A stretch of DNA of 18,436 nucleotides from an uncultured Ignavibacteria bacterium. Its GTDB lineage: Bacteria; Zixibacteria; MSB-5A5; JAABVY01; JAHJOQ01. A program made the translations under genes and the position numbers. The DNA lies in assembly GCA_964415885.1 (NCBI GenBank), contig CAYQCE010000023.1, positions 33,950 through 52,385 on the forward strand, given 5' to 3'. Positions 147-15,272 of this stretch are shown here, in pieces; the first letter of the stretch is position 1, and every line of letters starts with the position of its first letter. The notes under the pieces are model-generated. The model was not told the origin of the DNA. It saw only the letters and a program-made list of their open reading frames with translations, and searched no databases.

Positions 147-1163
147 TTGACTATGGAAACAACATACAGCCCCGGACTGAAGAGACACATCCCTCGAGTC
201 GGACTCGGAACATGGGCTCTCGGCGGATGGATGTGGGGCGGAACAAAGAAAAACGAGCCAATCGACACCATCCTCACGGCAATCGACAAAGGAGTCACAC
301 TGATCGATACAGCCCCGGTATATGGCTTCGGTAAGTCCGAAGAACTCGTGGGCAAGGCTTTGAAAGAGCACGGCGACCGTGAGAGCATAACTCTTGTAAC
401 AAAGTGGGGTCTTGAATGGGACGAGGATGAAAACGTCGTTCGGAATTCATCGATGGAACGTCTCGAGAAGGAGCTCGATGACTCGCTCAAGCGGCTCGAC
501 ACGGACTATATCGATGTCTACCTCGTACACTGGCCCGACACTGCGGTGCCGTTCGAGGAGACCGCAGAGGGCATGAACAAGTTTCTCCAAAGAGGCAAAG
601 TCCGTTCAATAGGCGTAAGCAACTACAGTCCTGCGCAGATGGATGAGTTTCGAAAGATCGCTCCGATCCATTTCGCACAACCGCCATACAACCTGTTCGA
701 GCGAGAAATCGAACATGACGTGATGCCGTACTGCAAGAAGCACGACATTACGATGCTCGGCTATGGCGCTCTGTGTCGCGGAATGCTATCCGGCAACATG
801 TCGCCCGAGCAGACATTCGAAGGAGACGATCTGCGGAATATGGACCCCAGGTTTCAAGATCCACAATTCAAGGAGTACCTGGAGGCAGTCCGCAAACTCG
901 AAGAGTTTGCGATGCGCAACAACGCGCGGCATGTGATCCATCTCGCTGTTAGGTGGATACTCGACAAGGGCATGGACGTTGCCCTGTGGGGGGCGCGCAA
1001 ACCGGAACAGTTGGCACCGCTCGACAGGACATTCGGATGGAAGCTGGACCAAACCGCGCTCAAGGAGATTGATGATATCCTGAATGAGACGATCGAGGAG
1101 CCGGTGGGTGCCAGCTTCATGTCACCACCAACTCGCGGAGAATCGGAAGTAACCAGAGAGTAA
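147..1163 (+). CDS. aldo/keto reductase family oxidoreductase (AKR11/YhdN-like)
   Basis: 338 aa. N-terminal 'LGTWALGG', 'DTAPVYGFGKSEELVGKAL', 'YIDVYLVHWPD' and 'IGVSNYS' are typical AKR motifs. RBS GGGAGG at 135-140. The track start is TTG at 147; ATG at 153 (METTYSPG...) is an equally plausible start. Confidence 0.85.
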   Translation: MTMETTYSPGLKRHIPRVGLGTWALGGWMWGGTKKNEPIDTILTAIDKGVTLIDTAPVYGFGKSEELVGKALKEHGDRESITLVTKWGLEWDEDENVVRNSSMERLEKELDDSLKRLDTDYIDVYLVHWPDTAVPFEETAEGMNKFLQRGKVRSIGVSNYSPAQMDEFRKIAPIHFAQPPYNLFEREIEHDVMPYCKKHDITMLGYGALCRGMLSGNMSPEQTFEGDDLRNMDPRFQDPQFKEYLEAVRKLEEFAMRNNARHVIHLAVRWILDKGMDVALWGARKPEQLAPLDRTFGWKLDQTALKEIDDILNETIEEPVGASFMSPPTRGESEVTRE

Positions 1164-1184: not shown

Positions 1185-2171
1185 ATGGCCAGACTTGCCA
1201 TAAATGGATTCGGAAGAATTGGAAGAGCAGCATTCAAAATCGCACTCGACACGCCCGGACTCGAGGTCGTGGCGATCAACGACCTTATCCCGACCGACAA
1301 CCTCGCATATCTGCTCAAGTATGACACTGTATACGGGAGATTCGGCGGCACGGTCGAGCATGACAATGAGCATTTGAAGATAGACGGGACCAAATACAGA
1401 GTGTACGGCGAGAAAGATCCGGCAAATCTGCCGTGGAAGGACCTCGACGTGGACGTGGTCTTCGAGTGCACGGGCGTATTCACTAACAGCAAGGATCTTG
1501 AAAAGCATGTCAAGGCCGGCGCAAAGTATGCAATTCTTTCGGCACCTGCGAAAGATGAGTTGCCCACGATCGTTCATGGCGTGAACGACAAAGAGGGCGA
1601 AGCACCGAAGATGATGTCCCTCGCGAGCTGCACCACGAATTGTATCACGCCTGTCGTCGACATCGTCGGCCGCAGGATAGGCATCAAAAAAGCGATGATG
1701 ACAACGATCCACGCGTACACATCCTCGCAGTCGATCGTGGACGGCCCGCACAAGAAGCCTCGTCGCGGGCGCGCCGGAGCGGCCAATCTCGTGCCGACAT
1801 CGACGGGCGCTGCGCAAGCGACTACCAGGGCACTACCTCAGTATGAGGGCAAATTTGACGGGATCGCCGTGCGCGGACCGGTTCCGGTGGGTTCGGTTGC
1901 AGACATCACATTCATAACCGAACGTGATGTAACCGTAGACGAAGTCAACGATATCTTCCGGGATGAGGCCGGAAAATCGAACGGCATACTGGCTGCATCC
2001 GAAGATGAGATTGTCTCGTCGGACATTATCGGAGATCCGAGAGCATCGATTATCGACCTGACGATGACTCAGGTCGTCGACGGAGATATGCTGAAAGTTA
2101 TGGCCTGGTATGATAACGAATGGGGCTATGCCAGCCAGATGGTGCGCAAAGCTGTCGATCTGGTTGGGTAG
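1185..2171 (+). CDS. gap: type I glyceraldehyde-3-phosphate dehydrogenase (NAD-dependent)
   Basis: 328 aa. Rossmann 'INGFGRIGR', 'KYDTVYGRF', catalytic 'ASCTTNC' (Cys-His active site) and C-terminal 'WYDNEWGY'. Asp in 'AINDL' suggests NAD specificity. GGAGG-like RBS (acggaggtt) upstream. Confidence 0.92.
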   Translation: MARLAINGFGRIGRAAFKIALDTPGLEVVAINDLIPTDNLAYLLKYDTVYGRFGGTVEHDNEHLKIDGTKYRVYGEKDPANLPWKDLDVDVVFECTGVFTNSKDLEKHVKAGAKYAILSAPAKDELPTIVHGVNDKEGEAPKMMSLASCTTNCITPVVDIVGRRIGIKKAMMTTIHAYTSSQSIVDGPHKKPRRGRAGAANLVPTSTGAAQATTRALPQYEGKFDGIAVRGPVPVGSVADITFITERDVTVDEVNDIFRDEAGKSNGILAASEDEIVSSDIIGDPRASIIDLTMTQVVDGDMLKVMAWYDNEWGYASQMVRKAVDLVG

Positions 2172-2216: not shown

Positions 2217-2987
2217 ATGGGTAGAGTAGATGGCAAAGTGGCAGTCGTGACAGGCGGATCGAAAGGAATCGGAAAGGCAACGGCACGCTTGCTCGCCGAT
2301 GAAGGTGCGAAAGTCGCGGTTACAGATATCGCAGATGAGAAAGGCCGGGAAGTAGTCAAAGAGATAAACAAGAACGGCGGAGAGGCCGAGTACTACCATC
2401 TCGATGTCGCGAAGGAAGACGATGTCAAAGAGTGTTTCCGCAAAGTCAAAGACAAGTTCGGTAAGATCGATGTGCTGGTGAACAACGCAGGTATTGCCGG
2501 ACCGGATAAACCAACCCATGAGATTGACGAAGAGGAATGGAATAAGCTGATGGGCGTAAACGTCAACGGAGTCTTCCTCTGCACGAAACACGCGATACCC
2601 TATATGAAGGAGGCCGGTGGCGGTAGTATAGTGAACCTCTCGTCGATATACGGAATAGTCAGTGCGCCGGATATTCCGGCATATCATGCATCGAAAGGCG
2701 CGGTCCGAATGATGAGCAAAACGGATGCGCTCTATTATGCTGACGATAATATCCGTGTCAACTCGGTGCATCCCGGATATGTCTGGACTCCGCTCGTCGA
2801 GCAACTCGGCAAAGAATCAGACATGGGTGTGGAGAAATTCCGCGAACATCTGGACAGCCTGCATCCGATAGGGCATGTGGGCGAGCCAAACGACATCGCG
2901 TATGGTATTCTGTATCTCGCCTCCGATGAGTCCAAGTTCACGACCGGTAGCGAACTAGTGATAGACGGTGGATACACGGCGAGGTAG
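2217..2987 (+). CDS. short-chain dehydrogenase/reductase (SDR) family oxidoreductase
   Basis: 256 aa. 'VAVVTGGSKGIGKA' (TGxxxGxG cofactor motif), 'NNAG', catalytic 'YHASKGAV' (YxxxK) and 'PGYVWTP'. RBS AGGAGG at 2197-2202. Confidence 0.88.
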   Translation: MGRVDGKVAVVTGGSKGIGKATARLLADEGAKVAVTDIADEKGREVVKEINKNGGEAEYYHLDVAKEDDVKECFRKVKDKFGKIDVLVNNAGIAGPDKPTHEIDEEEWNKLMGVNVNGVFLCTKHAIPYMKEAGGGSIVNLSSIYGIVSAPDIPAYHASKGAVRMMSKTDALYYADDNIRVNSVHPGYVWTPLVEQLGKESDMGVEKFREHLDSLHPIGHVGEPNDIAYGILYLASDESKFTTGSELVIDGGYTAR

Positions 2988-3060: not shown

Positions 3061-3106
3061 TGATTAAAGTCCTTGAAACGGCCATTTGGAAGCGGCGGAA
3101 GAAATC

Positions 3107-3841
3107 ATGAGTAGAGGGAAGATACACATAGGAACCTCAGGCTGGCAGTATGATCACTGGACCGACAATTTCTATCCCGGCGATCTCAAGAACGATGAAA
3201 AACTCGATTTCTACGCCGACAGGCTTGATTCGGTCGAGGTCAACAACTCGTTCTACAATCTTCCGAAGAAGGAGACATTAAAGAACTGGCGCAAGACTGT
3301 GCCGAGCGATTTCGTGTTTTCGGTCAAGGCGAGCCGATACATAACGCATATGAAGAAGCTGAACGATCCCGAGGAGTCGACGAATCGGTTTCTGACACGA
3401 ATTAAAGAACTCGGCAGCAAACTCGGACCGGTGCTGTTTCAGTTACCACCGAACTGGAAAGCCAATCGAGAGCGTCTCTCGGATTTTCTGTCACTTCTCC
3501 CAAAACATGTTCGACCAGTTATGGAGTTCAGAGAGGAAAGCTGGTTCGACAATGATGTCTACGATATTCTTCGAGATGCAAACGCTGCAATGTGCGTCTA
3601 TGATCTCGAGAAGGAAAAGACCCCGAATGCGGTGACGGCAGACTTCGTCTATATCAGGCTCCACGGTCCTGAGGAAGAGGCATACAGAGGAAAGTATAAC
3701 AAGCAGGCGCTATCCGGGTGGGCCGGAGCAATTTCAATATGGCGAGACAGGGGGCTGGATGTCTTCTGCTATTTCAACAATGACGACAGCGGATTTGCAG
3801 TGGAAAACGCGCTCGACTTGAGAGAGATGACCGATGCGTGA
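3107..3841 (+). CDS. DUF72 (YecE-like, UPF0759) family protein
   Basis: N-terminus 'KIHIGTSGWQYDHWTDNFYP' is the DUF72 signature (IGTSGW..W...FYP). The track ORF starts at ATG 3086; the internal ATG 3107 (MSRGK...) has a GGAAG RBS 5 nt upstream and gives the usual DUF72 N-terminus. Confidence 0.8.
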   Translation: MSRGKIHIGTSGWQYDHWTDNFYPGDLKNDEKLDFYADRLDSVEVNNSFYNLPKKETLKNWRKTVPSDFVFSVKASRYITHMKKLNDPEESTNRFLTRIKELGSKLGPVLFQLPPNWKANRERLSDFLSLLPKHVRPVMEFREESWFDNDVYDILRDANAAMCVYDLEKEKTPNAVTADFVYIRLHGPEEEAYRGKYNKQALSGWAGAISIWRDRGLDVFCYFNNDDSGFAVENALDLREMTDA

Positions 3842-4010
3842 CTCGTCAACTTACGAATTGCCAGAGATTTACGAACATCCGAGCCCGAGTCTTGTTCTAT
3901 TATATGGAAAGTGGATTAACTTGTAGCAACTCAATCTAAAAGACCAACCTGGAATCTGAACCTATAACTGACCTGGTCTGAGAAGATCGAGTCTTCCTCT
4001 GCGGGAGGTT

Positions 4011-5375
4011 GTGAAAAAACCAATTATGCGGGTACTTCTTGTAACAAACTCAGATGAAACCAAGCCCCGTCTCCAGAAGCTATTGTCAGACTACGAGCCC
4101 GAAATCAAATCCGTGAGTTCGTTGCCTTACGTTTCGAACGCGTTCAAGGCCAGTCAATACGACATAATGCTTCTCAACAGCGAATGCTGTTCCACGAACG
4201 GAAACGGATTCTCGGCCGCCATAAGCACGATCTCTACCGAATCCCCGCGAACACGGGTCATACTTCTCGTCAGGCCGGAAGATATCGAGGTAGCAATGAA
4301 GGGGCTTAGAGCGGGATCATACCAGTACGTCAGACTTCCCGTCAGTGACGAGGAGTTGAAATCTCTACTGACTACAGCTTACGATCTGAATCCGAGAACT
4401 CAATCGGATAGACTGTCGCTGAAAGCAAAGCGAGACAGCCGACTCGGAAAGCTTCTCGGGAGATCCAGCCGAATGCACGCCATTTTCGAGAAGATTCACA
4501 CTGCCGCCGATAACGACATTCCGGTGCTCCTGACCGGAGAAACCGGAACGGGCAAGGACCTCGTCGCCCGCACAATACATGACTTGAGCGAGCGCAAAAA
4601 GTCAGATTTCATCCCGGTAAATCTTGGGGCTCTGCCGATGGAGCTTGTGGCGAGCGAACTATTCGGCCACGAGAAGGGAGCGTTCACCGGTGCGACGGAT
4701 CAACGCAGTGGTGTTTTCGAGAGAGGATCCAAGGGGACGGTTTTTCTCGATGAGATAGACTGCATCGATGAAAAGGTGCGCGTGAGTCTTCTGCGACTGA
4801 TTGAAGAAAAGGAATTCCGACGTCTTGGCGGCAAGCAGACTATCGACAGCAACGCCCGGTTGATCACAGCGACCAACTCCGATCTCGAGAGACTTGTGAA
4901 AGAGGGCAAGTTCAGGGAGGACTTGTACTATCGTCTCGATGTCTTCAGAATCAATCTGCCTCCGCTGAGGGAAAGACGCGAGGACATCCCCTTAATTATC
5001 GATGACCTCATATCCAGGTTCAATAAGAGCCTGAATAAGCGAGTACGAAGTATTGCCCCGAACGTTATGGAGATACTCCAGGTGTATGAGTGGCCGGGTA
5101 ATGTACGCGAGCTCAGAAATGTCATCCAGCGAACGATGCTTGTTTGCAGCGATGGAAAAATAAAAGAAGAGCATCTGCCGGGACGACTGCGGAGCGATGA
5201 TGTCAGAAAGCCGAAAGTGACATTTCCGGTCGGAACCCCGCTCGACCAGGTTGAACGTGATATGATACTCCGCTGCCTATCTGTGACCGGCAACAACCGC
5301 ACGAGAGCCGCTGAGCTTCTCGGAATCAGCAGACGAGCACTCTACAACAAGCTCAAGACACACAAGATAAACTGA
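4011..5375 (+). CDS. sigma-54-dependent transcriptional activator (NtrC family AAA+ enhancer-binding protein) with a degenerate, probably non-phosphorylatable N-terminal receiver domain
   Basis: Walker A 'GETGTGKD', 'ESELFGHEKGAFTGA' (GAFTGA sigma-54 contact loop), Walker B 'VFLDEID', 'WPGNVRELRNVIQR', C-terminal Fis-type HTH 'RTRAAELLGISRRALYNKLK'. In the N-terminal receiver-like region the acidic pair is 'TNSDE', the phospho-acceptor position reads 'DIMLLNSE' (Asn instead of Asp), and K-P is replaced by 'VRLP'. Start is GTG 4011 (RBS GGGAGG 4003-4008) or ATG 4026. Confidence 0.9.
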   Translation: MKKPIMRVLLVTNSDETKPRLQKLLSDYEPEIKSVSSLPYVSNAFKASQYDIMLLNSECCSTNGNGFSAAISTISTESPRTRVILLVRPEDIEVAMKGLRAGSYQYVRLPVSDEELKSLLTTAYDLNPRTQSDRLSLKAKRDSRLGKLLGRSSRMHAIFEKIHTAADNDIPVLLTGETGTGKDLVARTIHDLSERKKSDFIPVNLGALPMELVASELFGHEKGAFTGATDQRSGVFERGSKGTVFLDEIDCIDEKVRVSLLRLIEEKEFRRLGGKQTIDSNARLITATNSDLERLVKEGKFREDLYYRLDVFRINLPPLRERREDIPLIIDDLISRFNKSLNKRVRSIAPNVMEILQVYEWPGNVRELRNVIQRTMLVCSDGKIKEEHLPGRLRSDDVRKPKVTFPVGTPLDQVERDMILRCLSVTGNNRTRAAELLGISRRALYNKLKTHKIN

Positions 5376-5385
5376 TCCGCGGAGT

Positions 5386-5403
5386 GTGTACCGTTACTTC
5401 ACA
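5386..5403. promoter_or_regulatory. imperfect inverted repeat GTGTACC-gttac-TTCACA (motif copy A); candidate operator
   Basis: Between the sigma-54 activator stop and the receiver gene. Shares 13 of 18 positions with copy C at 11148-11165. Confidence 0.3.
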
Positions 5404-5585
5404 CAAGCGCCTCAGCTAGTCCGTTAAGTGTTGCCTCGCGTCCTTACGCAGTCGCATCCGAAAAGGAACCCGCTATTCGCCTTGGACTTACACGAACGCC
5501 CTCCCGACTCGGCATGAAACTTGTTAAGAACCTGCGGTAGACAATGAACCCGATTTCTCGCAACTCGAGACGGAAGGCTTGGGCA

Positions 5586-5933
5586 ATGCTGAAAATACTC
5601 GTAGTGGAGGATCTTGACGATGGTCGATTGGTTGATTCGCTGATAGGGCTTGGCTTTGCCCCGGTGGCGCGTGATAAAATGCACCAGGCCCTGATCAAGC
5701 TCGAGCGCGGCAGTTTCTCGTTCATCGTTCTGGATAGAGAATATGAGGCCATCGATCCTCTCGAGTTTGTTCTCAATGTACGCGAAAAAGACAACAGCAT
5801 TCCTGTTATAATCGTGGGGAACTCAGAGGATAAACCGTACAATGATCTGCTGCGCAACCAGAGAAATGTTCACACGCTTGCCGAGGTCGATAGCCTGAGC
5901 AACGGAGAGTTGATGTCAATATTGCGCCATTGA
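5586..5933 (+). CDS. single-domain CheY-like response-regulator receiver protein (atypical C-terminal half)
   Basis: 'MLKILVVEDLDDG' acidic cluster and 'FSFIVLD' (putative phospho-Asp), but no clear T/S and K signature in the C-terminal half. The track start is ATG 5544 with no RBS; ATG 5586 has GGAAGG 8 nt upstream and gives the canonical receiver N-terminus. Confidence 0.6.
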   Translation: MLKILVVEDLDDGRLVDSLIGLGFAPVARDKMHQALIKLERGSFSFIVLDREYEAIDPLEFVLNVREKDNSIPVIIVGNSEDKPYNDLLRNQRNVHTLAEVDSLSNGELMSILRH

Positions 5934-5988
5934 GCGAGATACACGAGATCGTTAACTGCTGAACAACATATGAAGTGGAGGTTGTATA

Positions 5989-6354
5989 ATGTACGAAGTT
6001 ATAGAGAGCAAAGAAGACAAGTTAGAGATCCTGTTCAACGGACAGGTTACACAGGAGGACTTCCAGCAGGTGGCACATCACATAGAATCGATGTGCGCAG
6101 CACACCAGAATGTGAATGTTCTCTTCGACTTCTCAGGTGCTGGGAAGATCGATCCGAACGCAATCCCCGAGGAGCACAGATCATTCAAGAAGAACTCGGA
6201 GAAATTCGACCGTTTTGCGGTGGTCGGCAACGAGGATATCGTCCAGAAATTCTCTGACAAAATGAAAGCGCTGACGAACGTGCAGGTTACGCCATACCCT
6301 GAAGAACAAATCGATGAGGCCCGCAGGTTCATATTCCCGAGCCCGCTTCCGTAG
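5989..6354 (+). CDS. SpoIIAA-like / STAS-fold protein (DUF3478-like); possible partner-switching or regulatory component
   Basis: 121 aa. 'YEVIESKEDKLEILFNGQVTQEDFQQV...FDFSGAGKIDPNA...FAVVGNEDIV' matches the layout of SpoIIAA-like (STAS_2) small proteins as I recall them. RBS GGAGG 8 nt upstream. Confidence 0.5.
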   Translation: MYEVIESKEDKLEILFNGQVTQEDFQQVAHHIESMCAAHQNVNVLFDFSGAGKIDPNAIPEEHRSFKKNSEKFDRFAVVGNEDIVQKFSDKMKALTNVQVTPYPEEQIDEARRFIFPSPLP

Positions 6355-6457
6355 TACGACGGCCGTACGATATTTCTGTCGGTGACAGAGTACTACTGAT
6401 GCTCGCTCGCGCTGTTTTTGTTGCGGACAGTCACCTCTGTGGATAGTAAATTATGTC

Positions 6458-7540
6458 ATGACCGGAAATTCAGACAACAACAAGCCTCGCAATTACCTGA
6501 GCAAAATCGTAGTCGCGTTCGCGGCTGCTCTGCTTCTCGCGGGGCTGGTCTATGTTTTCTATCATGTCAGCTACATGTTGCTCATGGTCTTCGCGGGAAT
6601 ATTGCTCGGCGTATTCCTCGACGGGCTGGCAACACTACTGCGCAATCACATACGTATGCCCCGGTGGCTTGCGCTTACACTCGTCTCGCTCGTCATTCTC
6701 CTTCTGTTGACTGCTGTCGGCTGGTTTGCCGGTCCGCGTCTGGCAAACCAGTTCGCCAGATTGGCGGAGTTGATACCGAACTCGATACAGAGCCTAATGA
6801 ATAAGCTCACGCAGTATGAATGGGGTCAGAATCTGCTGGCGGACAAACCCAGCGCTCGGGAAATCCTGCCTCCGGTGTCGGAAATCGTAGGCAGCATTAA
6901 AGGCATCTTCTCCACAACACTCGGTACTCTCACGACAGTGTTGATCATACTGTTTATCGGAATCTACACAGCGGCCGACCCGAATGTTTATATCGACAAT
7001 GGTCTTCGACTGGTTCCGAAGAAGAATCGAGGAAGAGCTCGAGAGATAGTTCACTCGATCGGAAATGCAATGCGCTGGTGGCTCGCAGGCCGATTCGCCT
7101 CGATGGCGATAGTCGGTCTTCTCACGGCCGGAGCGATGGCGATTATCGGAATCCCACTCGCGCTCACGCTTGGTTTCATAGCGGCGGTCTTGTCTTTCGT
7201 GCCATACATAGGTCCAATCACGTCGGCAATCCCCGCAGTTCTGGTTGCGCTCACGGTAGATCCCATCCTCACTCTTTGGGTAATTGCGGCATACATCGTC
7301 GTACAGGCAATCGAAAGCTATCTCATCACGCCAATAATCCAGCAGCGCGCAATTTCGATTCCGCCGGTTCTATTGATTACCGGTCAGATTTTGATGGGAG
7401 TACTGGCTGGTCTTGCAGGCGTGTTCCTCGCAACACCACTCGTGGTCATAATAATCGTGCTCATCCAGACACTGTACGTTCAAGACACGCTCGGAGAGGA
7501 TGTCAAAATCATGGGCGTGCACGGAAAAGAACAAAACTGA
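6458..7540 (+). CDS. AI-2E family transporter (PerM/YhhT-like, UPF0118) integral membrane protein
   Basis: 360 aa, about 8 predicted hydrophobic helices, size and layout typical of the AI-2E family. Conserved-looking 'ITPIIQQRAISIPPVLLI' segment near TM7. Confidence 0.6.
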   Translation: MTGNSDNNKPRNYLSKIVVAFAAALLLAGLVYVFYHVSYMLLMVFAGILLGVFLDGLATLLRNHIRMPRWLALTLVSLVILLLLTAVGWFAGPRLANQFARLAELIPNSIQSLMNKLTQYEWGQNLLADKPSAREILPPVSEIVGSIKGIFSTTLGTLTTVLIILFIGIYTAADPNVYIDNGLRLVPKKNRGRAREIVHSIGNAMRWWLAGRFASMAIVGLLTAGAMAIIGIPLALTLGFIAAVLSFVPYIGPITSAIPAVLVALTVDPILTLWVIAAYIVVQAIESYLITPIIQQRAISIPPVLLITGQILMGVLAGLAGVFLATPLVVIIIVLIQTLYVQDTLGEDVKIMGVHGKEQN

Positions 7541-7605
7541 TTTACCACTATAACAACTTATTGTACTGTTGCTTCACATTAACCGTATATATCGAATACA
7601 GGCTG

Positions 7606-7620
7606 TGTGAATTCTTCACA
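7606..7620. promoter_or_regulatory. inverted repeat TGTGAA-ttc-TTCACA (motif copy B; same half-sites, shorter spacer)
   Basis: Half-sites are exact reverse complements, and the TGTGA/TCACA type is the CRP/FNR-family half-site. Lies ~250 bp upstream of the first BON gene and ~110 bp upstream of the sigma-54-like element at 7728. Confidence 0.25.
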
Positions 7621-7865
7621 AACAGGTATTCCGAAGGTCCCGATACGCGGCCTTACCTGCCCTGACGACTGACGATCTTCCCACAACTCACTGTCGCCTC
7701 ACACCTTATGCCAACACAGACCACCGTTGGCATGTTTCTTGTACTTATACCTCAAGTGTAACCAAACTCCTGCGTGACACAATCGTCACGGATCAAACGA
7801 ATGGAAATCAGATGCAGGAATGCACTATCGTTTGATTTGAAGTTTGAAGGAGGGAAACGAAAGAG

Positions 7866-9365
7866 ATGCTTAACAGATGTAGAAACAGCAACCGAGCAAA
7901 TCGCGGCTCTGTACTCAGCGCAATTCTAACGACACTTCTCATAGTGACCGGAATGACAACTGCAAATGCACAACCTGTTGAGATGTCATTGGATGACGAC
8001 GAGATCACCTTTGCGGTGGAAACAGAGCTTCTCGTGGATCAGTTGGTACAGTCGCACCTAATTGATGTAGAGACGAAAGATGGAGTTGTCACACTCAAGG
8101 GAACGGTTGACAACATCCTTGCCAGGAACAGGGCGGAGAGACTTGCAGAGCGTGTGAAAGGCGTACGTTCGGTAATCAACCCGATAATTGTCGAACCGGT
8201 CTATCGAGCCGATGAAGATATTCTAAGCGATGTGAAACTCGCCCTGCTGATCGATCCGGCAACGGAATCATACGACATCGATGTCTCGGTGTCGGATGCG
8301 GAAGTGCGCTTGAATGGAACGGTCGACTCGTGGCAGGAAAAGATGCTCGCCGAACGAGTGGCCAAAAGCGTCAAGGGTGTCCGTGCGATTGACAACGAGA
8401 TCGCAGTCGATTACGCGGCGGACCGAAGCGATCAGGAAATCAGAAACGATATCAAGGGTCGTCTCGAAGCCGACGTCTGGATTGATGAGTGGCTGATCGA
8501 TGTGGACGTCGACAATGGCAACGTCACTCTCAGCGGTTCGGTCGGAAGTGCGGCAGAGAAACGGTATGCCGAGGCGGATGCCTGGGTTGCCGGCGCCACG
8601 TCTGTCGATGTCTCCGATCTCGAGCTGGAATGGTGGGCGAGAGACGAAACGAAGCGTAAGCAGAAGTACCAGGGGGTGGATGATCCGCAGATACGGGACG
8701 CCGTGATGGACGCGCTTTTCTATGACCCGAGGGTTACATCGGCCGGAATAAAGGTCAAGGTCAAGAACGGCGTAGCCAAATTGTCCGGCGAAGTCGACAA
8801 CCTTGCTGCGAAAAAGGCGGCCGAAGAGGATGCCGAGAACACCTTCGGCGTCTGGGTGCTCCAGAACCATATCCGCGTTCGACCAGACGAGATAGCGCGG
8901 AATGACGACCTCAAGAACGATGTCCTTCAGGCTCTGATGCGTGACCCACATATCGAGTCGTTCGACATCGAACCAGAAGTTCGCATGGGTCTGGTTTACC
9001 TCGAGGGTACCGTAAACAGTGACTTCGAGAGACGGCATGTGGAAGAGGTTGTCGAAAATGTGAAGGGTGTTGTCGAGGTAATCAATCTGCTCGACTACAG
9101 GTTCGAATGGGTGCCGATGCCTGACCGCAAAATTAAGCGTAATGTCGCGGAACAGCTTTACTGGTCACCGTTCGTCGACCGCGAGCAAATCGATATTGAG
9201 ATCAACAACGGCATCGTAACGCTTTCCGGCGTAGTCGAATCTTGGCGGGAAAGACATGCCGCCGAGATGAACACGTTCGAGGCCGGAGCCAGGGATGTCA
9301 TAAACCAGATATTGATAGAGGCTCATCCGTACGAAGAGCTGACACCGATTCGCGGAGAAAGATAA
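7866..9365 (+). CDS. secreted protein with six tandem BON (OsmY-like) domains
   Basis: 499 aa. N-terminal signal peptide (…LLIVTGMTTANAQP). Six ~75-aa repeats, each ending in the BON signature V.GV..V.N.I.V: VKGVRSVINPIIV, VKGVRAIDNEIAV, VAGATSVDVSDLEL, TFGVWVLQNHIRV, VKGVVEVINLLD, EAGARDVINQILI. RBS AAGGAGGG upstream. Confidence 0.8.
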   Translation: MLNRCRNSNRANRGSVLSAILTTLLIVTGMTTANAQPVEMSLDDDEITFAVETELLVDQLVQSHLIDVETKDGVVTLKGTVDNILARNRAERLAERVKGVRSVINPIIVEPVYRADEDILSDVKLALLIDPATESYDIDVSVSDAEVRLNGTVDSWQEKMLAERVAKSVKGVRAIDNEIAVDYAADRSDQEIRNDIKGRLEADVWIDEWLIDVDVDNGNVTLSGSVGSAAEKRYAEADAWVAGATSVDVSDLELEWWARDETKRKQKYQGVDDPQIRDAVMDALFYDPRVTSAGIKVKVKNGVAKLSGEVDNLAAKKAAEEDAENTFGVWVLQNHIRVRPDEIARNDDLKNDVLQALMRDPHIESFDIEPEVRMGLVYLEGTVNSDFERRHVEEVVENVKGVVEVINLLDYRFEWVPMPDRKIKRNVAEQLYWSPFVDREQIDIEINNGIVTLSGVVESWRERHAAEMNTFEAGARDVINQILIEAHPYEELTPIRGER

Positions 9366-9404
9366 TAGTACTGACTAACAGGACTCCAAGGGAGGAGATT
9401 TCAG

Positions 9405-9800
9405 ATGTTCATCGCAGATATATTGGCAGCCTTCGTGATCGCGCTGCTATTGAGTTTTCTGCTTGCGGTAGTGTTCGGATGGGAACATCCCGGAAGACCG
9501 GGAGTGTGGCCTTCGCTGCTATTCGTATTCTTCATAATCTTCCTGGCGACCTGGGCGTTCGGTGCATGGATACCGCCGGCAGGACCGGCAGTCTGGGGAG
9601 TTTACTGGCTGCCGTTCATCGGCATCGGCCTGATATTCATGCTCCTGATAGCGGCTCTGATCCCACCGCTAAGAGGGAAACGGAGAAGAACGGCACGCGA
9701 GGAGGAAGCGGCCGAAGAAGCAGGTACCGCCATCGGTGTCTTCTTCTGGGTTTTCATGCTGTTTCTGATAATAACCATAATCGGACATTACGCGTTCTAA
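9405..9800 (+). CDS. small integral membrane protein of unknown function (3-4 TM helices; charged loop RGKRRRTAREEEAAEEAG)
   Basis: 131 aa, strongly hydrophobic. RBS AAGGGAGGAG 9389-9398. No recognisable family motif. Confidence 0.5.
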   Translation: MFIADILAAFVIALLLSFLLAVVFGWEHPGRPGVWPSLLFVFFIIFLATWAFGAWIPPAGPAVWGVYWLPFIGIGLIFMLLIAALIPPLRGKRRRTAREEEAAEEAGTAIGVFFWVFMLFLIITIIGHYAF

Positions 9801-9891
9801 CGGGATAGCGCGTGATCCGTGTAAGACGAGATTTCAAAGTCTCTAATTGGAGAACATCAAATAGATATCATATACCTTAGGAGGTTTAGTG

Positions 9892-10323
9892 ATGCAGATG
9901 AAAGAACTGATGACAGATGAAGTGAGACTTGTACACACAAACTCAACAGTACATGAAGCAGCGGACAGAATGAAGAAATTCGATGTCGGCGCTCTGCCGG
10001 TAGTGGAGGGCGAAAAGGTCGTCGGTATGCTGACCGACCGTGACATAACGGTCCGTGCAGTCGCGAACAAGGCCGATCCGATGAAGACACGAGTTAGCGA
10101 TATCATGACGCCTGAAGTCGAGTACTGCTACGTCGATCAGCCGCTCAACGAATGCGCAAAGATAATGAGAGACAAGCAGATCAGACGATTGGTCGTCATG
10201 GACAGAAACGAAAAGGTCGCGGGAATATGCTCTCTCGGTGATATTGCTCTCAATGCAAGCGATGAGTTGAGCGAAAAGGTTCTCGAAGACGTCTCCAAGC
10301 AGGATAAAGACACCGACACGTAA
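9892..10323 (+). CDS. CBS-pair domain protein
   Basis: Two CBS motifs: '...VHEAADRMKKFDVGALPVVEGEKVVGMLTDRDI' and '...LNECAKIMRDKQIRRLVVMDRNEKVAGICSLGDIA'. The track starts at GTG 9889; ATG 9892 is 7 nt after RBS AGGAGG (9879-9884). Confidence 0.85.
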   Translation: MQMKELMTDEVRLVHTNSTVHEAADRMKKFDVGALPVVEGEKVVGMLTDRDITVRAVANKADPMKTRVSDIMTPEVEYCYVDQPLNECAKIMRDKQIRRLVVMDRNEKVAGICSLGDIALNASDELSEKVLEDVSKQDKDTDT

Positions 10324-10352
10324 TCTATGTTTGCCTGCAAACCAGCATGGGT

Positions 10353-10378
10353 CTGCGCCCGGAAAGCTCCGGGCGCAG
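10353..10378 (+). terminator. hairpin downstream of the CBS gene; candidate intrinsic terminator
   Basis: CTGCGCCCGG (10353-10362) / CCGGGCGCAG (10369-10378): perfect 10-bp GC-rich stem with a 6-nt loop, followed by a T-rich stretch tctcgtgtgtt. Confidence 0.5.
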
Positions 10379-10434
10379 TCTCGTGTGTTGAGTTCTGAAC
10401 AGTACGACACTTCCAACAGGGAGGCGAGAATAAA

Positions 10435-10962
10435 ATGCAGCTCAAAGACAGAAAGCTCGCAATCTTCCTCGAAAATATGTACGAGGATATCGAATTCTGG
10501 TATCCGTACTACAGAATGCAGGAAGAGGGAGCGGAGGTGGAAATCATCGCTCCACAAAAAGGTGAATACAAGGGGAAACACGGAGTGAAGGCAACCGCCG
10601 ACAAGGCAATTGATGACGTCAATTTCGAGGAATACGACGCAGTTATCATTCCGGGTGGTTTCTCACCAGACTACATGCGCCGATCCGACGCAATGGTCGA
10701 TTTCGTGAGACAGATGGACAACAGCAAAAAAGTTGTTGCGGCGATCTGCCACGGTGCATGGCTGCCGGCGAGCGCCGACATACTGAAAGGCAAGAAGCTC
10801 ACGAGTTTCCATTCGATAAAGAAGGACTTGGAAAATGCCGGGGCTGAGTGGACAAATCTACCGGTGGTTAAGAGCGGAAACCTGATTACAAGCAGGAATC
10901 CGAATGATCTCCCGCAGTTCTGCACTGCAATCATCGAAGCGGTAGCGAACAACATACCGTGA
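10435..10962 (+). CDS. DJ-1/PfpI family protein (class I glutamine amidotransferase-like; YhbO / general-stress-protein-18 type)
   Basis: 175 aa. Nucleophile elbow 'AAICHGAW' (Cys-His), 'VIIPGG', overall DJ-1/PfpI length and layout. RBS AGGGAGG upstream. Confidence 0.9.
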   Translation: MQLKDRKLAIFLENMYEDIEFWYPYYRMQEEGAEVEIIAPQKGEYKGKHGVKATADKAIDDVNFEEYDAVIIPGGFSPDYMRRSDAMVDFVRQMDNSKKVVAAICHGAWLPASADILKGKKLTSFHSIKKDLENAGAEWTNLPVVKSGNLITSRNPNDLPQFCTAIIEAVANNIP

Positions 10963-11004
10963 TTCTGTAGATATCTCTCTGCCTCAAATTCCACTTTCCC
11001 CGGA

Positions 11005-11036
11005 GAATGCCGGCTTCTACCCGCAGGCCGGCATTC
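11005..11036 (+). terminator. hairpin downstream of the PfpI gene; candidate terminator
   Basis: GAATGCCGGC (11005-11014) / GCCGGCATTC (11027-11036): perfect 10-bp stem with a 12-nt loop. Only a short T-run (cacttta) follows. Confidence 0.45.
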
Positions 11037-11147
11037 ACTTTAGGTCCTCAGCAAATCAGCCCATTCGCAATTCAATCAGACTTCAGATATGTCAGTATCT
11101 TGTAAATGTACGAAGAATGCATGATCAACCGGCTTGAGTCCATTATC

Positions 11148-11165
11148 GTGTACCATAGCTTCACA
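11148..11165. promoter_or_regulatory. imperfect inverted repeat GTGTACC-atagc-TTCACA (motif copy C); candidate operator
   Basis: In the 367-bp leader of the second BON gene, followed 5 nt later by a GGCAC-N8-GC sigma-54-like element (11171-11184). Confidence 0.3.
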
Positions 11166-11329
11166 TATCAGGCACAACTCCGGCCCTACACGCGATTACG
11201 CATACAGCGCTCAAACATCAGAGTCTTCAGCGCCTTATACGACAGCAACTTACAGCCATCATGCGCTAATCGGCATGATAGTTGTTCTATCACATTATGG
11301 ATGACAAAAACTGATCAAGGGAGGAGCTG

Positions 11330-12778
11330 ATGAACCTGACATATCTCACTAAGAAGAAATCAACAAGTACGTTACTGCTCGCACTGCTATGTGCCATTTT
11401 CGTCGGCGCCGGCGCATCAGCACAAGAAACTCAAGCCGACATTTCTGACGCTGACATAACGTTTGCAACTAAGAACGAGTTGCAACAGGATCCGGTAGTT
11501 GCCGGCAAGTTCATCAATGTTTCGACTACCAACGGAGTGGTCGAGTTGACCGGCTCCGCGACAAGCATGCGGGAGAAGAAGCGTGCGACATTACTCGCCA
11601 AATCCATACGCGGTGTGCTTTCCGTGGTCAACAGAATCTCGGCGAAGGCACCGGAGCGGTCCGATGAGCAGATCAATATCGATGTCCAGGAGGCACTGGC
11701 GTTTGACCCGGCTACTGACAATTATGACATTGATGTGTCCGTGTCGGACGGTATTGTGACCCTGTCCGGAACCGTTCAGTCGTACCCGGAGATGAAACTC
11801 GCGGAAAAGCTCGCAATGGGTGTACCGGGAGTAAGAGACATAGAGAACAACATCTCGATGCACTACTCGGAAGAGAGAGCGGACGCGGCGATCGCCGACG
11901 ATGTAAAGAGACGAATCGCGTACGATGCGCGAGTCGATGATGAAATGATCGAGGTAGACGTCGAGAACGGCAATGTGTTTCTGAGCGGCGCCGTCGGCAG
12001 CGCCGCCGAGAGAAGCCTTGCTTCTGCAGACGCCTGGGTAATTGGCGTTAATTCAGTAGATGTCACGAATATCGAGGTACGTTGGTGGGCTCGCAATGAT
12101 ATGAAAAAGATAGAGGTCTACAAGGACCTTACCGACGCGAAGATCAGAGATGCCATCCTTGAGGCGCTCGTGATTGACCCGAGAATATTCATGGATGAAA
12201 TCACCGTACTCGTAAACGACGGCTTCGTCACCCTTCGTGGCAAAGTCAACGACTTGCGAGCGAAGAAGGTCGCCGAGCAGGACGCGCTGAACACTGTCGG
12301 AGTCTGGGGTGTAGACAACAACCTGACCGTGTCGCCGGACACGCAGCTTTCAGATAACGAAATCGTGAGCAGGATAGAGAGCGCAGTCCAAAAGGAACCG
12401 TACGCTGATATGGAGGCAATCGAGGTCAGTTCAAACGATGGCATCGTGCGGCTAAGTGGCGAGATAGCGAGCGTCTACGAAAGTGAGCTTATCGAGAAGA
12501 TTGCCTGGCGAACCAAGGGCGTAGTTGATGTCTCCAACGAGTTGAGCACAAGTATGGCTCAGATAAACAAACAGGACAAAGAGATTCTCGCGGGGATTGA
12601 ATCAGAGCTGATTTGGAGCCCGCATCTCGATTTGGAGAACATCAACGTCAGAGTTGTTGATGGGAAGGCGACCATCGAGGGTACGGTCGACTCATATCAC
12701 AAGAAGCTTCTCGCGGAGAAGAACGCCTACCAGGGTGGCGCGAGAATAGTCGAGAACAAAATCGAGGTAAGTCGTTAG
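11330..12778 (+). CDS. secreted six-BON-domain protein, paralog of 7866..9365
   Basis: 482 aa. Signal peptide (…AIFVGAGASAQE). Six BON repeats: IRGVLSVVNRISA, VPGVRDIENNISM, VIGVNSVDVTNIEV, TVGVWGVDNNLTV, TKGVVDVSNELST, QGGARIVENKIEV. Collinear with the first BON protein (e.g. 'DPATDNYDIDVSVSDGIVTLSGTV' vs 'DPATESYDIDVSVSDAEVRLNGTV'; 'NGNVFLSGAVGSAAE...ADAWV' in both). RBS GGGAGG 5 nt before the ATG. Confidence 0.8.
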   Translation: MNLTYLTKKKSTSTLLLALLCAIFVGAGASAQETQADISDADITFATKNELQQDPVVAGKFINVSTTNGVVELTGSATSMREKKRATLLAKSIRGVLSVVNRISAKAPERSDEQINIDVQEALAFDPATDNYDIDVSVSDGIVTLSGTVQSYPEMKLAEKLAMGVPGVRDIENNISMHYSEERADAAIADDVKRRIAYDARVDDEMIEVDVENGNVFLSGAVGSAAERSLASADAWVIGVNSVDVTNIEVRWWARNDMKKIEVYKDLTDAKIRDAILEALVIDPRIFMDEITVLVNDGFVTLRGKVNDLRAKKVAEQDALNTVGVWGVDNNLTVSPDTQLSDNEIVSRIESAVQKEPYADMEAIEVSSNDGIVRLSGEIASVYESELIEKIAWRTKGVVDVSNELSTSMAQINKQDKEILAGIESELIWSPHLDLENINVRVVDGKATIEGTVDSYHKKLLAEKNAYQGGARIVENKIEVSR

Positions 12779-12833
12779 TGAAACAGATGACCTGCAAAGC
12801 TAACATTACACTGATCGAAGAGGTGATTCCCCG

Positions 12834-13586
12834 ATGATCCGGAGCACGAATGACATACGCGGATTCAAAGTAGCTGCAAAAGACGGCGAATGCGGTAAAG
12901 TGGACGACTTTTTGTTCGATGACGCCGTGTGGACCGTCAGGTATCTCGTCGTTGACATCGGCGACTGGCTGACGGGCCGCAAGGTACTCATACCGCCGAG
13001 CGAACTCGATGTGCCCAATTGGGAAGAGCAGGCGTTCCCGGTCAATCTCACGAAAGAAGAGATCGAGAACAGCCCGCCGATTTCCTCGGATGAGCCGGTG
13101 TCCCGTCAGCACGAGGTCGCCCTTCACCAGCATTTCGGCTGGCAGCCGTACTGGGGCGGCGGTGTCGCTACCGGTGGAGCAACCGTGCCGGTCACGCGAC
13201 CGACCGATCCGGCCACGGCACAGGAAGGCGAAAGAGAGAAGGAAGTGAAAGGCGATCCGGGCCTCAGAAGCGCGAAAGAACTCGTCGCATACTACATACA
13301 GGCCGAAGATGATGAGATCGGTCATGTCGATGATGTGCTTCTCGACGACGACAATTGGGTGGTCCGATATCTGGTCGTCGACACTCGAAACTGGCTCCCG
13401 GGCAAAAAGGTTCTCGTTGCCGTGGATTGGATCCGTGAGGTCAGCTGGCTCGATACGAAAGTATTCGTGGACCTCACCAAGGAGCGAATACGGAACGGTC
13501 CGGAGTACAACTCATCCGGAAACGTTGATCGTATGTACGAGGAGACACTTTTCGATCACTACCAGCGTCCGAGATACTGGCTGTAG
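12834..13586 (+). CDS. tandem PRC-barrel domain protein (general-stress type)
   Basis: 250 aa. Two PRC-barrel repeats: 'IRGFKVAAKDGECGKVDDFLFDDAVWTVRYLVVDIGDWLTGRKVLIPPSEL' and 'LVAYYIQAEDDEIGHVDDVLLDDDNWVVRYLVVDTRNWLPGKKVLVAVDWI', joined by a Gly/Pro-rich linker. Confidence 0.8.
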   Translation: MIRSTNDIRGFKVAAKDGECGKVDDFLFDDAVWTVRYLVVDIGDWLTGRKVLIPPSELDVPNWEEQAFPVNLTKEEIENSPPISSDEPVSRQHEVALHQHFGWQPYWGGGVATGGATVPVTRPTDPATAQEGEREKEVKGDPGLRSAKELVAYYIQAEDDEIGHVDDVLLDDDNWVVRYLVVDTRNWLPGKKVLVAVDWIREVSWLDTKVFVDLTKERIRNGPEYNSSGNVDRMYEETLFDHYQRPRYWL

Positions 13587-13632
13587 AGTCTCCGGGCGTA
13601 GAATCTCAAATTGTGGAAAGGTGTTCTGACGA

Positions 13633-13923
13633 ATGGATGCCAGAGAGGCGTATCTCAAACGCAGAGAGGCCGAGATCAATGCAATGGAAAATGAACTCAA
13701 CCTGCTCGAAGAGCAATATGACGGTTCAAACAGGCCGGAAGCAGAGCGTCTCGAAAAGGACGTCCGGAGAACACAGCATCTCATCGACAATTTCAAGGAT
13801 GAGATGAGAGCGCAGAAGGAAGAGGGCGATGGCGAGTGGAGTGTTGAAAGGGAGCGCCTGCAGAAGAAATGGAACGTTATCAACGAGTCTCTCACCTCCA
13901 CTCTTCTAAATCTCGGCCGTTGA
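13633..13923 (+). CDS. small coiled-coil hypothetical protein
   Basis: 96 aa, charged and heptad-rich (…EINAMENELNLLEEQYD…KDEMRAQKEEGDGEW…). RBS GGAAAGG 13615-13621, 11 nt upstream. No family recognised. Confidence 0.4.
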   Translation: MDAREAYLKRREAEINAMENELNLLEEQYDGSNRPEAERLEKDVRRTQHLIDNFKDEMRAQKEEGDGEWSVERERLQKKWNVINESLTSTLLNLGR

Positions 13924-14004
13924 AACAGTCAATGGTCCTCACTCGTAAGATCAATATGAAGAGAATCCGCCCTAAACCGAATTCCCAGAACGGAGGTCAA
14001 TGTT

Positions 14005-15165
14005 ATGGAGAGACTCACCAGGAATCATCTCGCAAAACTCACAGAGCGAACCGATGAGAACAGCATATCGATATATATGCCCGCGGAAGTGGGTACGCAG
14101 GGTTTTGAGAAGAACCGCATCAGGTTCAAGAACCTCGTAAGCGACGCGCGAAAGCAACTCAAGAAACGAAATCTCTCCGACTCAGACATCGATGAGATTT
14201 TGAAGCCGATCGAGGAACTTATGCGGGAATCGACATTTTGGAGGAATCTCGGCAACGGGATGGCCTTGTTCCGATCTCCGCAGTACATGGAATCTCTGGA
14301 GCTATCGCGCGATGTAAATGAGCTCTCGGTCGTCTCTGATCGTTTTCATGTTAAGCCACTGGTCCACGAGCTGAACCGTGAGGGCAGCTTCGCACTCCTG
14401 ACTTTGAAACTCGGCGAAGTTCAGTTGTACGAGGGCGACCGAAATTCTCTTACGGCCGTTCCTGAGACAAACATGCCCGCCAGCCTGGCCGACGTTCTGA
14501 AGTATGACGAGTTTCGAAAACAAACGCAGTTTCATACCGGCGCTCCGAACAGGCCGGAGAGCGGCCGCGATGCAATGTTCTTCGGTTCCGGAGACGCAGA
14601 TTACGACAAAGTCAAAGCTGTCAAGACGTACTTTCGCGCGGTGGACAAGGGACTAAGTGAGGCAATCAATGACAGAAACATCCCCCTCGTTCTCGCCGGT
14701 TTGGATCATCTGCTGCCTCTCTACAGGGAAGTGTCCGGCTACAAAAACATTGCGGAGGAGCAGGTCTCCGGTGATCCGAAACAGTTGAACGAGGAGACAC
14801 TCCATGAACGCGCATGGAAAGCCCTCGAGCCCATCTTCGAATCAGACAAACTCAATCGCACCGCCAAATATAAGAGGCTGAAAGCTCAGGGATCCTCCGA
14901 GGCATCATCCGATCTCGACAAGATCGTGCCGGCAGCGGTTCACGGCAGGATCGATACGCTCTTCCTCGAACTCGGAGTGCAGCGATGGGGTAGATATGAT
15001 CCCGATAACATGAGCGCCATCGAACATGATAGCCCCGAGACCGGCGATATTGATCTTCTCGACTTCGCGGCGGCACGGACTCTCGCGTCGGGAGGCACAG
15101 TCTATGTCGTCAAGCAGGATGAGCTCCCGGACGGCGACTCAGCCGCAGCCATAATGAGATACTGA
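14005..15165 (+). CDS. bacterial aeRF1-superfamily (eRF1/Pelota/Dom34-like, 'baeRF'-type) protein lacking the NIKS and GGQ motifs
   Basis: 386 aa. Collinear similarity to eukaryotic eRF1 as I recall it. In the N-domain, 'ENSISIYMP' matches eRF1 'TSMISLIIPP'. At the start of the central domain, 'SDRFHVKPLVHELNREGSFALLTLKLGEVQLY' matches '[31 protein letters not shown]'. In the central domain, 'TYFRAVDKGL…IPLVLAG' matches 'NYVRKVAE…VAGLVLAGSADFK'. At the extreme C-terminus, 'SAAAIMRY' matches eRF1/Pelota 'GGIGGILRY'. The GGQ position reads 'FFGSGD' and the NIKS position reads 'KNRIRFKN'. Confidence 0.65.
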   Translation: MERLTRNHLAKLTERTDENSISIYMPAEVGTQGFEKNRIRFKNLVSDARKQLKKRNLSDSDIDEILKPIEELMRESTFWRNLGNGMALFRSPQYMESLELSRDVNELSVVSDRFHVKPLVHELNREGSFALLTLKLGEVQLYEGDRNSLTAVPETNMPASLADVLKYDEFRKQTQFHTGAPNRPESGRDAMFFGSGDADYDKVKAVKTYFRAVDKGLSEAINDRNIPLVLAGLDHLLPLYREVSGYKNIAEEQVSGDPKQLNEETLHERAWKALEPIFESDKLNRTAKYKRLKAQGSSEASSDLDKIVPAAVHGRIDTLFLELGVQRWGRYDPDNMSAIEHDSPETGDIDLLDFAAARTLASGGTVYVVKQDELPDGDSAAAIMRY

Positions 15166-15272
15166 ACCCTGTCATACAGATTCAGTCGGGCATCTATTTG
15201 CATTGACTGTTGAATCCGGTTCGGGTAACTTTGAGCTGACTGTCGAAAACAACTCCTGAGCAAGGTAATCCT

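Follow-up and report, generated by a model that had tools for sequence, protein, structure and literature searches.

The window analysed here, an 18,436-nucleotide stretch of contig CAYQCE010000023.1 (assembly GCA_964415885.1), encodes an NtrC-type sigma-54 activator whose N-terminal receiver domain appears to have lost every residue for Asp phosphorylation and, next to it, a small stand-alone receiver-like protein that we call sREC. It is highly probable that the activator drives three sigma-54 promoters in this window, P1, P2 and P3, the first of which lies in front of the sREC gene and the other two in front of runs of stress genes. Our proposal, which we hold with somewhat more belief than doubt, is that this is a phosphorylation-independent sigma-54 activator of a stress regulon and that sREC exerts feedback on the activator. 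Direct modulation of the activator by sREC is plausible but falls short of an even chance. The positions of all features are given in Table 1.

The activator and its receiver-like domain

The activator gene can start at GTG 4011 or at ATG 4026 and the public gene call uses ATG 4026, which gives a product of 449 aa. The product matched the Pfam families Sigma54_activat with 211 bits (cut-off 20.2), AAA_lid_14 with 94 bits and HTH_8 with 55 bits. An earlier note on this DNA, made from the letters alone, had described an NtrC-type activator with all the sigma-54-activation motifs, and this was borne out as the Walker A and Walker B motifs, the GAFTGA loop, the AAA lid and the Fis-type helix-turn-helix (HTH) were all located. 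Judged from these motifs, the protein is fully equipped as a sigma-54 enhancer-binding protein (EBP), with an AAA+ core, GAFTGA and a C-terminal HTH. When the AlphaFold2 (AF2) model of the activator, which was run with 70 homologues and had a predicted local distance difference test score (pLDDT) of 85, was searched with Foldseek, the best matches were NtrC1, NtrX, NtrC4, LuxO and FleQ, and the best fold matches were the entries 1NY5, 5M7P and 3DZD with E = 1e-36 to 1e-39. No NCBIfam equivalog was reached, the AtoC and NtrC models matching far under their cut-offs, and the Pfam FleQ domain (PF06490) had no match in the activator.

With 27.2 bits against Pfam Response_reg, the N-terminus of the activator stays under the gathering score (30.2). 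Residues 1-121 take up a (beta-alpha)5 receiver fold in the AF2 model, with strands at residues 2-6, 26-30, 47-51, 77-82 and 100-103 that alternate with helices. Thr7-Asn8 stand in place of the acidic pair, Asn51 is at the phospho-acceptor position, Val82-Arg83 are found after beta4 with no Thr or Ser there, and Arg103-Leu104-Pro105 take the place of Lys-Pro. Alignments to CheY and to NtrC agree with the AF2 model on these lost catalytic positions. Most of these losses, namely those of the acidic pair, the acceptor and the Lys-Pro motif, had been read in the earlier note, and they were all recovered here. A start-codon error that hides a canonical Asp had also been considered, and neither GTG 4011 nor ATG 4026 restores an Asp. 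As far as sequence and model can tell, the N-terminal domain is a pseudo-receiver in which every residue for Asp phosphorylation has been lost.

The search for homologues of the activator returned thousands of proteins; the top 120 were about 50% identical along the whole protein, and KSB1, Planctomycetota, Sedimentisphaerales, Phycisphaerales and Calditrichaeota are among the source labels of the top homologues. In 70 homologues the residue at the acceptor was T in 49, S in 11, D in 3 and N in 2, and the residue after it was Ser in 59. The canonical Lys column was Leu in 54 of the 70 and never Lys, with Lys or Arg one residue before. By this comparison the loss of Asp phospho-acceptance is a trait of the whole activator family, and the view that the activator's receiver is unable to accept phosphate on an Asp extends from the window to its relatives. 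The segment from beta5 to alpha5, YQYAKLPxSDEEL, is almost invariant in the family. There is little or no variation in residues of the HTH recognition region, which is consistent with a site that is conserved across phyla. It was also observed that T or S at the acceptor in 60 of the 70 homologues and Ser next to it in 59 make up a conserved T-S dipeptide where Asp is expected. This dipeptide might be a Ser/Thr-kinase site in other members of the family; for the window activator Ser/Thr phosphorylation at the acceptor was excluded, as the residues there are Asn-Ser.

Predicted sites, sigma-54 promoters and sREC

When the window was scanned with generic sigma-54 consensus patterns (TGGCAC-N5-TTGCW with up to 2 mismatches, and TGGC-N8-TGC) no enrichment was found. 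Promoter and site patterns were derived from the intergenic region that separates the activator from the gene after it, as found in four related loci. These regions have in common a GGCA[CT]-N5-[CT]TG[CT] element 65-160 nt before the downstream gene, with TGT..ACA palindromes upstream of it. In the window the site pattern TGTRYN7DYACA had 4 matches compared to 0.40 expected, a number that was reached in 1 of 200 shuffles, and the promoter pattern GGCAYN5YTGY had 5 matches compared to 0.75 expected, a number that was reached in none of 200 shuffles. All four sites and three of the five promoter matches fall in three intergenic regions and the order is always site, promoter, gene. The other two promoter matches, at 969 and 1983, are within genes with no site near and are probably due to chance. 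We refer to the predicted sites as upstream activating sequences (UAS). The open reading frame (ORF) at 11106-11330 (74 aa, ATG) was rejected as a gene; it has no family match and contains UAS3 and P3.

These sites and promoters were then compared with those of a close relative (L015/L016), whose activator and sREC proteins are 88-89% identical to those of the window. At all three regions the sites and the promoters are conserved blocks amid more variable spacers. Among 55 non-redundant site-promoter pairs from all the loci fetched, 40 were spaced 123-129 nt and eight were spaced 167-170 nt, which is about four helical turns further. The -12 element in the 40 pairs spaced 123-129 nt was TTGC in 32 and TTGT in eight. 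The earlier note had suggested that the activator may control the surrounding stress genes and that sigma-54 promoters be mapped across the island; three promoters with sites at 123-125 nt were found, as pairs that are conserved in L015/L016, and the suggestion is thereby strengthened. The activator is most likely the protein that binds the 17-bp site. There is no UAS upstream of the window activator gene itself.

The linkage between the activator and sREC was examined in 12 loci that were fetched through the activator and in 80 metagenome loci that were fetched through the sREC motif; a contig search with a narrower activator alignment gave 8 loci and the window's own genome was not among them. 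The sREC gene was directly downstream of the activator in nine of the 12 activator-fetched loci, and the linked loci are labelled Nitrospiraceae, Lentisphaerae, Calditrichota (two loci), Brocadiaceae and Planctomycetota. An activator homologue was immediately upstream of sREC and on the same strand in 45 of the 66 metagenome loci with enough upstream sequence. Because sREC adjoins the activator in the former and the activator adjoins sREC in the latter, a functional coupling of the two is supported. In 56 of the 80 loci, several without an adjacent activator included, there is a strict sigma-54 promoter before sREC. The activator-sREC pair, the site and the spacing of about 125 nt were found again in dozens of metagenome loci and in loci whose labels name seven phyla. 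The activator was present without sREC in Gemmatimonadota and Desulfatitalea. In the Gemmatimonadota locus (L007, 4925-5413) a UAS and a sigma-54 promoter with 126-nt spacing were observed before a dodecin gene that is just upstream of the activator. With no sREC in this locus and the UAS and promoter upstream of the activator, the activator may be autoregulated there.

The start of sREC was placed at 5586 and not at 5544, as the product on record is 115 aa, a GGAAGG Shine-Dalgarno sequence is upstream and the homologues align from 5586. No Pfam family was found for sREC, and its Response_reg score of 20.6 bits is under the threshold of 30.2. The AF2 model of sREC (pLDDT 86) has a (beta-alpha)5 fold and its best PDB matches are receiver domains. 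A search with the single sequence gave only one near-identical relative, a profile search gave 24 proteins, and a profile search of 1.84 billion representatives gave 314 at E <= 1e-10. Among the matches listed, nearly all the homologues are stand-alone proteins of roughly 100-170 aa. Residue counts were taken over 149 of the 314 representatives. A signature on and after helix alpha3, D-x2-E-x2-L-N-x-R-D-x5-P, is almost invariant in them (D57-x2-E60-x2-L63-N64-x-R66-[D/E]67-x5-P73 with residue numbers). The acceptor Asp is kept in 125 of the 149; Pro, Ser, Glu or Asn takes its place in certain lineages with a complete module. At the first acidic position 85 of the 149 have Gly and only 9 an acidic residue, 104 have Gly where the Thr is expected, and no Lys is found after beta5. 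With the acidic pair, Thr and Lys absent across the family and the Asp substituted in some lineages, canonical phosphotransfer is unlikely to be the conserved mechanism of sREC, and on these counts sREC is best described as a second pseudo-receiver. The window sREC is unusual within its family in that Glu8-Asp9 are present in addition to Asp50 ('FIVLD'). The earlier note had taken it for a stand-alone CheY-like receiver that keeps its Asp; this holds for the fold and for Asp50, and Gly78 is at the Thr position and the Lys is missing.

Operons, cargo and neighbouring genes

All substantial genes of the window are on the + strand (Table 1). Since only a weak terminator-like hairpin (6354-6368) separates the AI-2E transporter gene from the sREC operon, the transporter may be co-transcribed with sREC. 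The second gene of this operon had been taken to encode a SpoIIAA-like STAS protein, of which the first part stands (PF11964, 61.9 bits in Pfam) but the second does not, as PF11964 is not one of the canonical STAS families. In the PDB the only relative of the protein is the uncharacterised 2Q3L, with E = 0.096. A SpoIIAA-like gene follows sREC in only two of the 80 metagenome loci and, besides these, in L002 and in the close relatives (L015/L016), and it is occasional cargo and not part of the module core.

Other genes are found after sREC in other loci. ProA follows sREC in 31 of the 80 loci and passes its NCBIfam cut-off (525 vs 289 bits), and a GCS2-like carboxylate-amine ligase and then an MTTB-like methyltransferase are present in 22 of the 80. 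The commonest operon at a UAS and sigma-54 promoter was observed to be sREC, ProA (glutamate-5-semialdehyde dehydrogenase), a GCS2/YbdK-like carboxylate-amine ligase and an MTTB-like methyltransferase, as in L019 at 3986-8321 and similarly in L021, L032, L038, L040, L049, L056 and others. This operon looks as if it encodes a pathway not yet assigned, possibly one for osmolytes. Elsewhere lysine 2,3-aminomutase and BON or PRC proteins are the genes after sREC, and in one locus (L002) TreT and PfkB are found further along the same gene run. The regulon is probably a stress regulon, with osmotic, salt or desiccation stress as the likely signal. A survey with position-specific scoring matrices predicts sigma-54 control of MscS channels and UspA proteins enriched in Planctomycetia and names no activator (PMC12316311).

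Several other observations concern the genes around the predicted operons. The 96-aa protein at 13633-13923 scored 24.9 bits against the NCBIfam sll1863 stress-response family, compared to a cut-off of 35; sll1863 is a salt-induced protein of Synechocystis. Small ORFs homologous to the 96-aa protein are found after PRC-barrel genes in L001 and L002. A gene for a baeRF (bacterial archaeo-eukaryotic release-factor-like) protein is followed by a Hanks-type kinase-like ORF (14005-15992); the membership of this pair in the P3 operon is uncertain, and so is whether operon 3 reaches the kinase-like ORF. The genes for EncFtn and encapsulin have their own strong sigma-70-like promoter, TTGACA-18-TATTAT, with 11 of 12 matches at 16005-16034, and a strong terminator 3' of encapsulin at 17390-17417. 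The encapsulin pair was considered as part of operon 3 and was set aside because of this promoter; the two genes look like a separate iron-storage or oxidative-stress unit within the stress island. Upstream of the window, in the same organism (L001, 1-6100), there is a further run of stress genes that encode BON and PRC-barrel proteins, two proteins of about 100 aa, an S30AE/CSD ribosome-hibernation fusion, a phosphoribosyltransferase and a Cu-SOD/OsmC-like protein. No recognisable UAS-sigma-54 pair was found at this upstream BON cluster, where there is only a degenerate site-like sequence at about 937-953.

Table 1. Features of the window, with predicted activator sites, promoters and operons
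Feature	Position	Strand	Remarks
Aldo/keto reductase	147-1163	+	
GAPDH	1185-2171	+	
SDR	2217-2987	+	
DUF72	3086-3841	+	
Sigma-54 activator (EBP)	4011/4026-5375	+	Pfam, AF2 model, Foldseek, motif coordinates
Predicted pseudo-receiver of activator	4026-4388	+	449-aa numbering
Asn51 codon (AAC) of activator	4176-4178	+	Phospho-acceptor position, end of beta3; AF2 model, alignment
AAA+ domain with lid	4455-5210	+	449-aa numbering
Walker A, GETGTGKD	4536-4559		
GAFTGA loop	4677-4694	+	Sigma-54 contact, exact match
Walker B, FLDEID	4743-4760		
Fis-type HTH	5241-5360	+	449-aa numbering
HTH motif	5295-5354		
UAS1, TGTACCGTTACTTCACA	5387-5403	+	Predicted activator site, 124 nt upstream of P1; conserved in L015/L016
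P1, predicted sigma-54 promoter GGCATGAAACTTGT	5511-5524	+	-24 GG, -12 TTGT; 75 nt before sREC start codon
sREC	5586-5933	+	115-aa stand-alone receiver-fold protein
SpoIIAA-like protein (PF11964)	5989-6354	+	Gene 2 of sREC operon
AI-2E family transporter	6458-7540	+	
UAS2a, TGTACTGTTGCTTCACA	7562-7578	+	Predicted site, 167 nt upstream of P2
UAS2b, TGTGTGAATTCTTCACA	7604-7620	+	Predicted site, 125 nt upstream of P2
P2, predicted sigma-54 promoter GGCATGTTTCTTGT	7729-7742	+	137 nt before BON1
6xBON protein (BON1)	7866-9365	+	
131-aa protein	9405-9800	+	No family match
CBS pair	9889-10323	+	
DJ-1/PfpI	10435-10962	+	
UAS3, TGTACCATAGCTTCACA	11149-11165	+	Predicted site, 123 nt upstream of P3
P3, predicted sigma-54 promoter GGCATGATAGTTGT	11272-11285	+	58 nt before BON2; within probably spurious ORF 11106-11330
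Second 6xBON protein (BON2)	11330-12778	+	
PRC-barrel protein	12834-13586	+	
96-aa protein	13633-13923	+	Weak sll1863-family match
baeRF protein	14005-15165	+	
Short Hanks-kinase-like ORF	15273-15992	+	239 aa
EncFtn	16172-16522	+	
Encapsulin	16562-17365	+	
MsrA	17981 to window end	+	
Predicted operon 1			P1; sREC, SpoIIAA-like, possibly AI-2E transporter
Predicted operon 2	7866-10962	+	6xBON, 131-aa protein, CBS pair, DJ-1/PfpI; hairpin after, ~10998-11038
Predicted operon 3	11330-15165	+	6xBON, PRC-barrel, weak sll1863-like, baeRF

Proposed control of the activator and comparison with known systems

The mechanism that we propose begins with the predicted binding of the Fis-type HTH of the activator to the 17-bp near-palindrome TGTRY-N7-DYACA about 125 nt upstream of the -24/-12 promoters, and optionally to a second site some 167 nt upstream. 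The GAFTGA/AAA+ ring would then open the sigma-54 holoenzyme at P1, P2 and P3, from which the products of operons 1, 2 and 3, respectively, would be made: sREC and the SpoIIAA-like protein, possibly with the AI-2E transporter, from P1; the BON protein, the 131-aa protein, CBS and DJ-1/PfpI from P2; and the BON, PRC-barrel, sll1863-like and baeRF proteins from P3. Upon its synthesis sREC would bind back to the activator and modulate it, and the likely contact would be the pseudo-receiver or its conserved alpha4-beta5-alpha5 face. The outcome would be a phosphorylation-independent feedback loop with the logic of PspA on PspF, FleN on FleQ and HrpV on HrpS. We infer feedback by sREC because it is the one constant first target and is genetically linked to the activator, because a receiver fold is a natural partner for the conserved receiver surface of the activator, and because PspF, FleQ and HrpS are controlled by anti-activators from their own regulons. 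The earlier note had suggested that the pseudo-receiver may be controlled through sREC, and the linkage in nine of 12 and 45 of 66 loci supports that the two are coupled; as an upstream input, however, sREC is not obvious because its gene is the first behind the UAS and sigma-54 promoter and is the most conserved predicted target. A role of sREC as a transcriptional target, feedback modulator or output fits better.

There are points that weigh against the activator-sREC loop as we propose it. The -12 element is TTGT and not the canonical TTGC at all three window promoters; because eight of the 40 pairs spaced 123-129 nt carry TTGT, the window promoters are taken as sigma-54 promoters that are canonical apart from a tolerated deviation. 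The counts of matches are partly circular, since the patterns were learned from a few of the same loci, but this does not affect the spacing peak or the footprints. Another regulator could bind the TGTRY-N7-DYACA site. About a third of the sREC genes do not adjoin an activator, and three activator loci (L003, L007 and L011) have no sREC. The window sREC, with its Glu8-Asp9 and Asp50, might receive phosphate from an unlinked kinase in this organism. Finally, the stress signal is assigned by guilt by association only.

One alternative, which we consider unlikely, is that the activator is regulated without sREC. It would be constitutive and controlled by its expression, or its pseudo-receiver would sense a ligand, a physical cue (ionic strength) or cyclic di-GMP as in FleQ/VpsR, and sREC would be a pure output that acts on another target. 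Ligand binding or constitutive dimerisation has been described for pseudo-receivers (PMC12632262), the alpha4-beta5-alpha5 face (YQYAKLPxSDEEL) is strongly conserved as expected of a dimer or an intramolecular interface, and the unlinked third of the sREC genes and the absence of a UAS upstream of the activator gene itself also agree with such regulation. What it leaves unexplained is why sREC and not a cargo gene is the constant first gene behind the site across phyla, and why the fold of sREC is that of a receiver, which would naturally pair with another receiver.

It is improbable that sREC is a true phospho-accepting receiver, an upstream input that is fed by an unlinked histidine kinase and, once phosphorylated, turns on the activator by forming a heterodimer with its dead receiver. 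The acidic residues and Asp50 of the window sREC, the Asp in 125 of the 149 family representatives and the tight activator-sREC linkage would be expected if this were so, but the family-wide Gly at the first acidic and Thr positions, the missing Lys and the substitution of the Asp in some whole-module lineages would not. No HisKA or HATPase_c domain was found in any window ORF scanned, which is in line with the earlier observation that no histidine kinase is present, and among four Logan/NCBI loci with called genes a kinase was nearby in only one, where it is paired with its own response regulator. Moreover, the sREC gene comes after a UAS and a sigma-54 promoter of the activator itself, so that sREC would be made after activation.

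Partner switching, in which the SpoIIAA-like protein would be an anti-anti-factor that relays stress to the activator, had also been suggested and is very improbable, for although the window, L015/L016 and L002 have a gene for a PF11964 protein co-transcribed with sREC, its rarity after sREC in metagenome loci weakly refutes such a role, the protein belongs outside the canonical STAS families with an uncharacterised protein as its only PDB relative, and no RsbW/SpoIIAB-type kinase (HATPase_c) or PP2C phosphatase was found in the window.

Our proposal of a phosphorylation-independent activator with sREC as feedback modulator can be extended, tentatively and with less chance of being right than wrong, to a multi-phylum sigma-54 osmotic or general stress regulon that is run by two phosphorylation-dead receivers, one AAA+-fused and one free, with kinase-independent feedback via receiver-receiver contacts and with the osmolyte pathway (ProA, GCS2-like ligase and MTTB-like methyltransferase) included. 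If true, kinase-independent receiver-receiver feedback would be a signalling logic that has not been described for proteins derived from two-component systems. Pseudo-receivers in general have been reviewed (PMC4395418, PMC12632262) and the question of how they are turned on and off is acknowledged to be open (PMC12632262). The module is a clean and widespread test case for this question, with a defined DNA site, a rigid promoter geometry and a small partner as the first target. It would give a regulator to genes for stress and compatible solutes, namely those for BON, CBS, DJ-1, ProA, lysine 2,3-aminomutase and TreT, in poorly studied sediment phyla, and the site and promoter signature is directly usable for regulon mapping in metagenome-assembled genomes. 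In the literature searched we found no account of an AAA+-fused and a free pseudo-receiver as a regulator-target pair, none of an activator family combined with a site of rigid geometry, a dedicated free pseudo-receiver and a stress or osmolyte link across phyla, and no such stress regulator described for Planctomycetota, Calditrichota, KSB1, Lentisphaerota or Nitrospirota.

The window activator shares its receiver-AAA+-HTH three-domain architecture with NtrC1, NtrC4, DctD and NtrX, but unlike these it has lost all five catalytic receiver positions and has no cognate kinase gene nearby. RitR, ChxR, HP1043, GlnR and FrzS are likewise Asp-less or pseudo-receivers that have a receiver fold without the phosphotransfer set (PMC4395418, PMC12632262), and a conserved Asp with a possibly structural role has been reported in GlnR and RamR; what differs here is that an AAA+-fused and a free-standing domain form a conserved regulator-target pair. 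Feedback by an anti-activator that is encoded by a target is established for FleN/FleQ and PspA/PspF, and likewise for HrpV/HrpS. In the phage shock system, PspF/PspA, the activator gene also adjoins a sigma-54-dependent target operon of a stress response, and feedback on the activator comes from the operon's first product, as we infer for sREC. PspF, however, has no N-terminal domain, and its AAA+ domain is bound by PspA, which is a coiled-coil (ESCRT-III-like) protein. FleQ/FlrA with FleN in Pseudomonas and Vibrio is also similar in that the sigma-54 activator has a receiver-like N-terminus without a phospho-acceptor and in that its activity is tuned by a partner from its own regulon, as is proposed here, and FleQ structures are among the fold matches of both the activator and the sREC models. 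The two systems differ in that the window activator has only a weak Response_reg match and lacks the Pfam FleQ domain, in that the partner of FleQ is a MinD-like ATPase, whereas here it would be a receiver-fold protein and the window has no ParA/MinD-like gene, and in that the FleQ regulon is for flagella whereas stress or osmolyte genes are found here. Sigma-54 activators with pseudo-receivers are already known from FleQ and FlrA, and it is their combination with the site, the geometry, sREC and the stress genes that we did not find in the literature searched.

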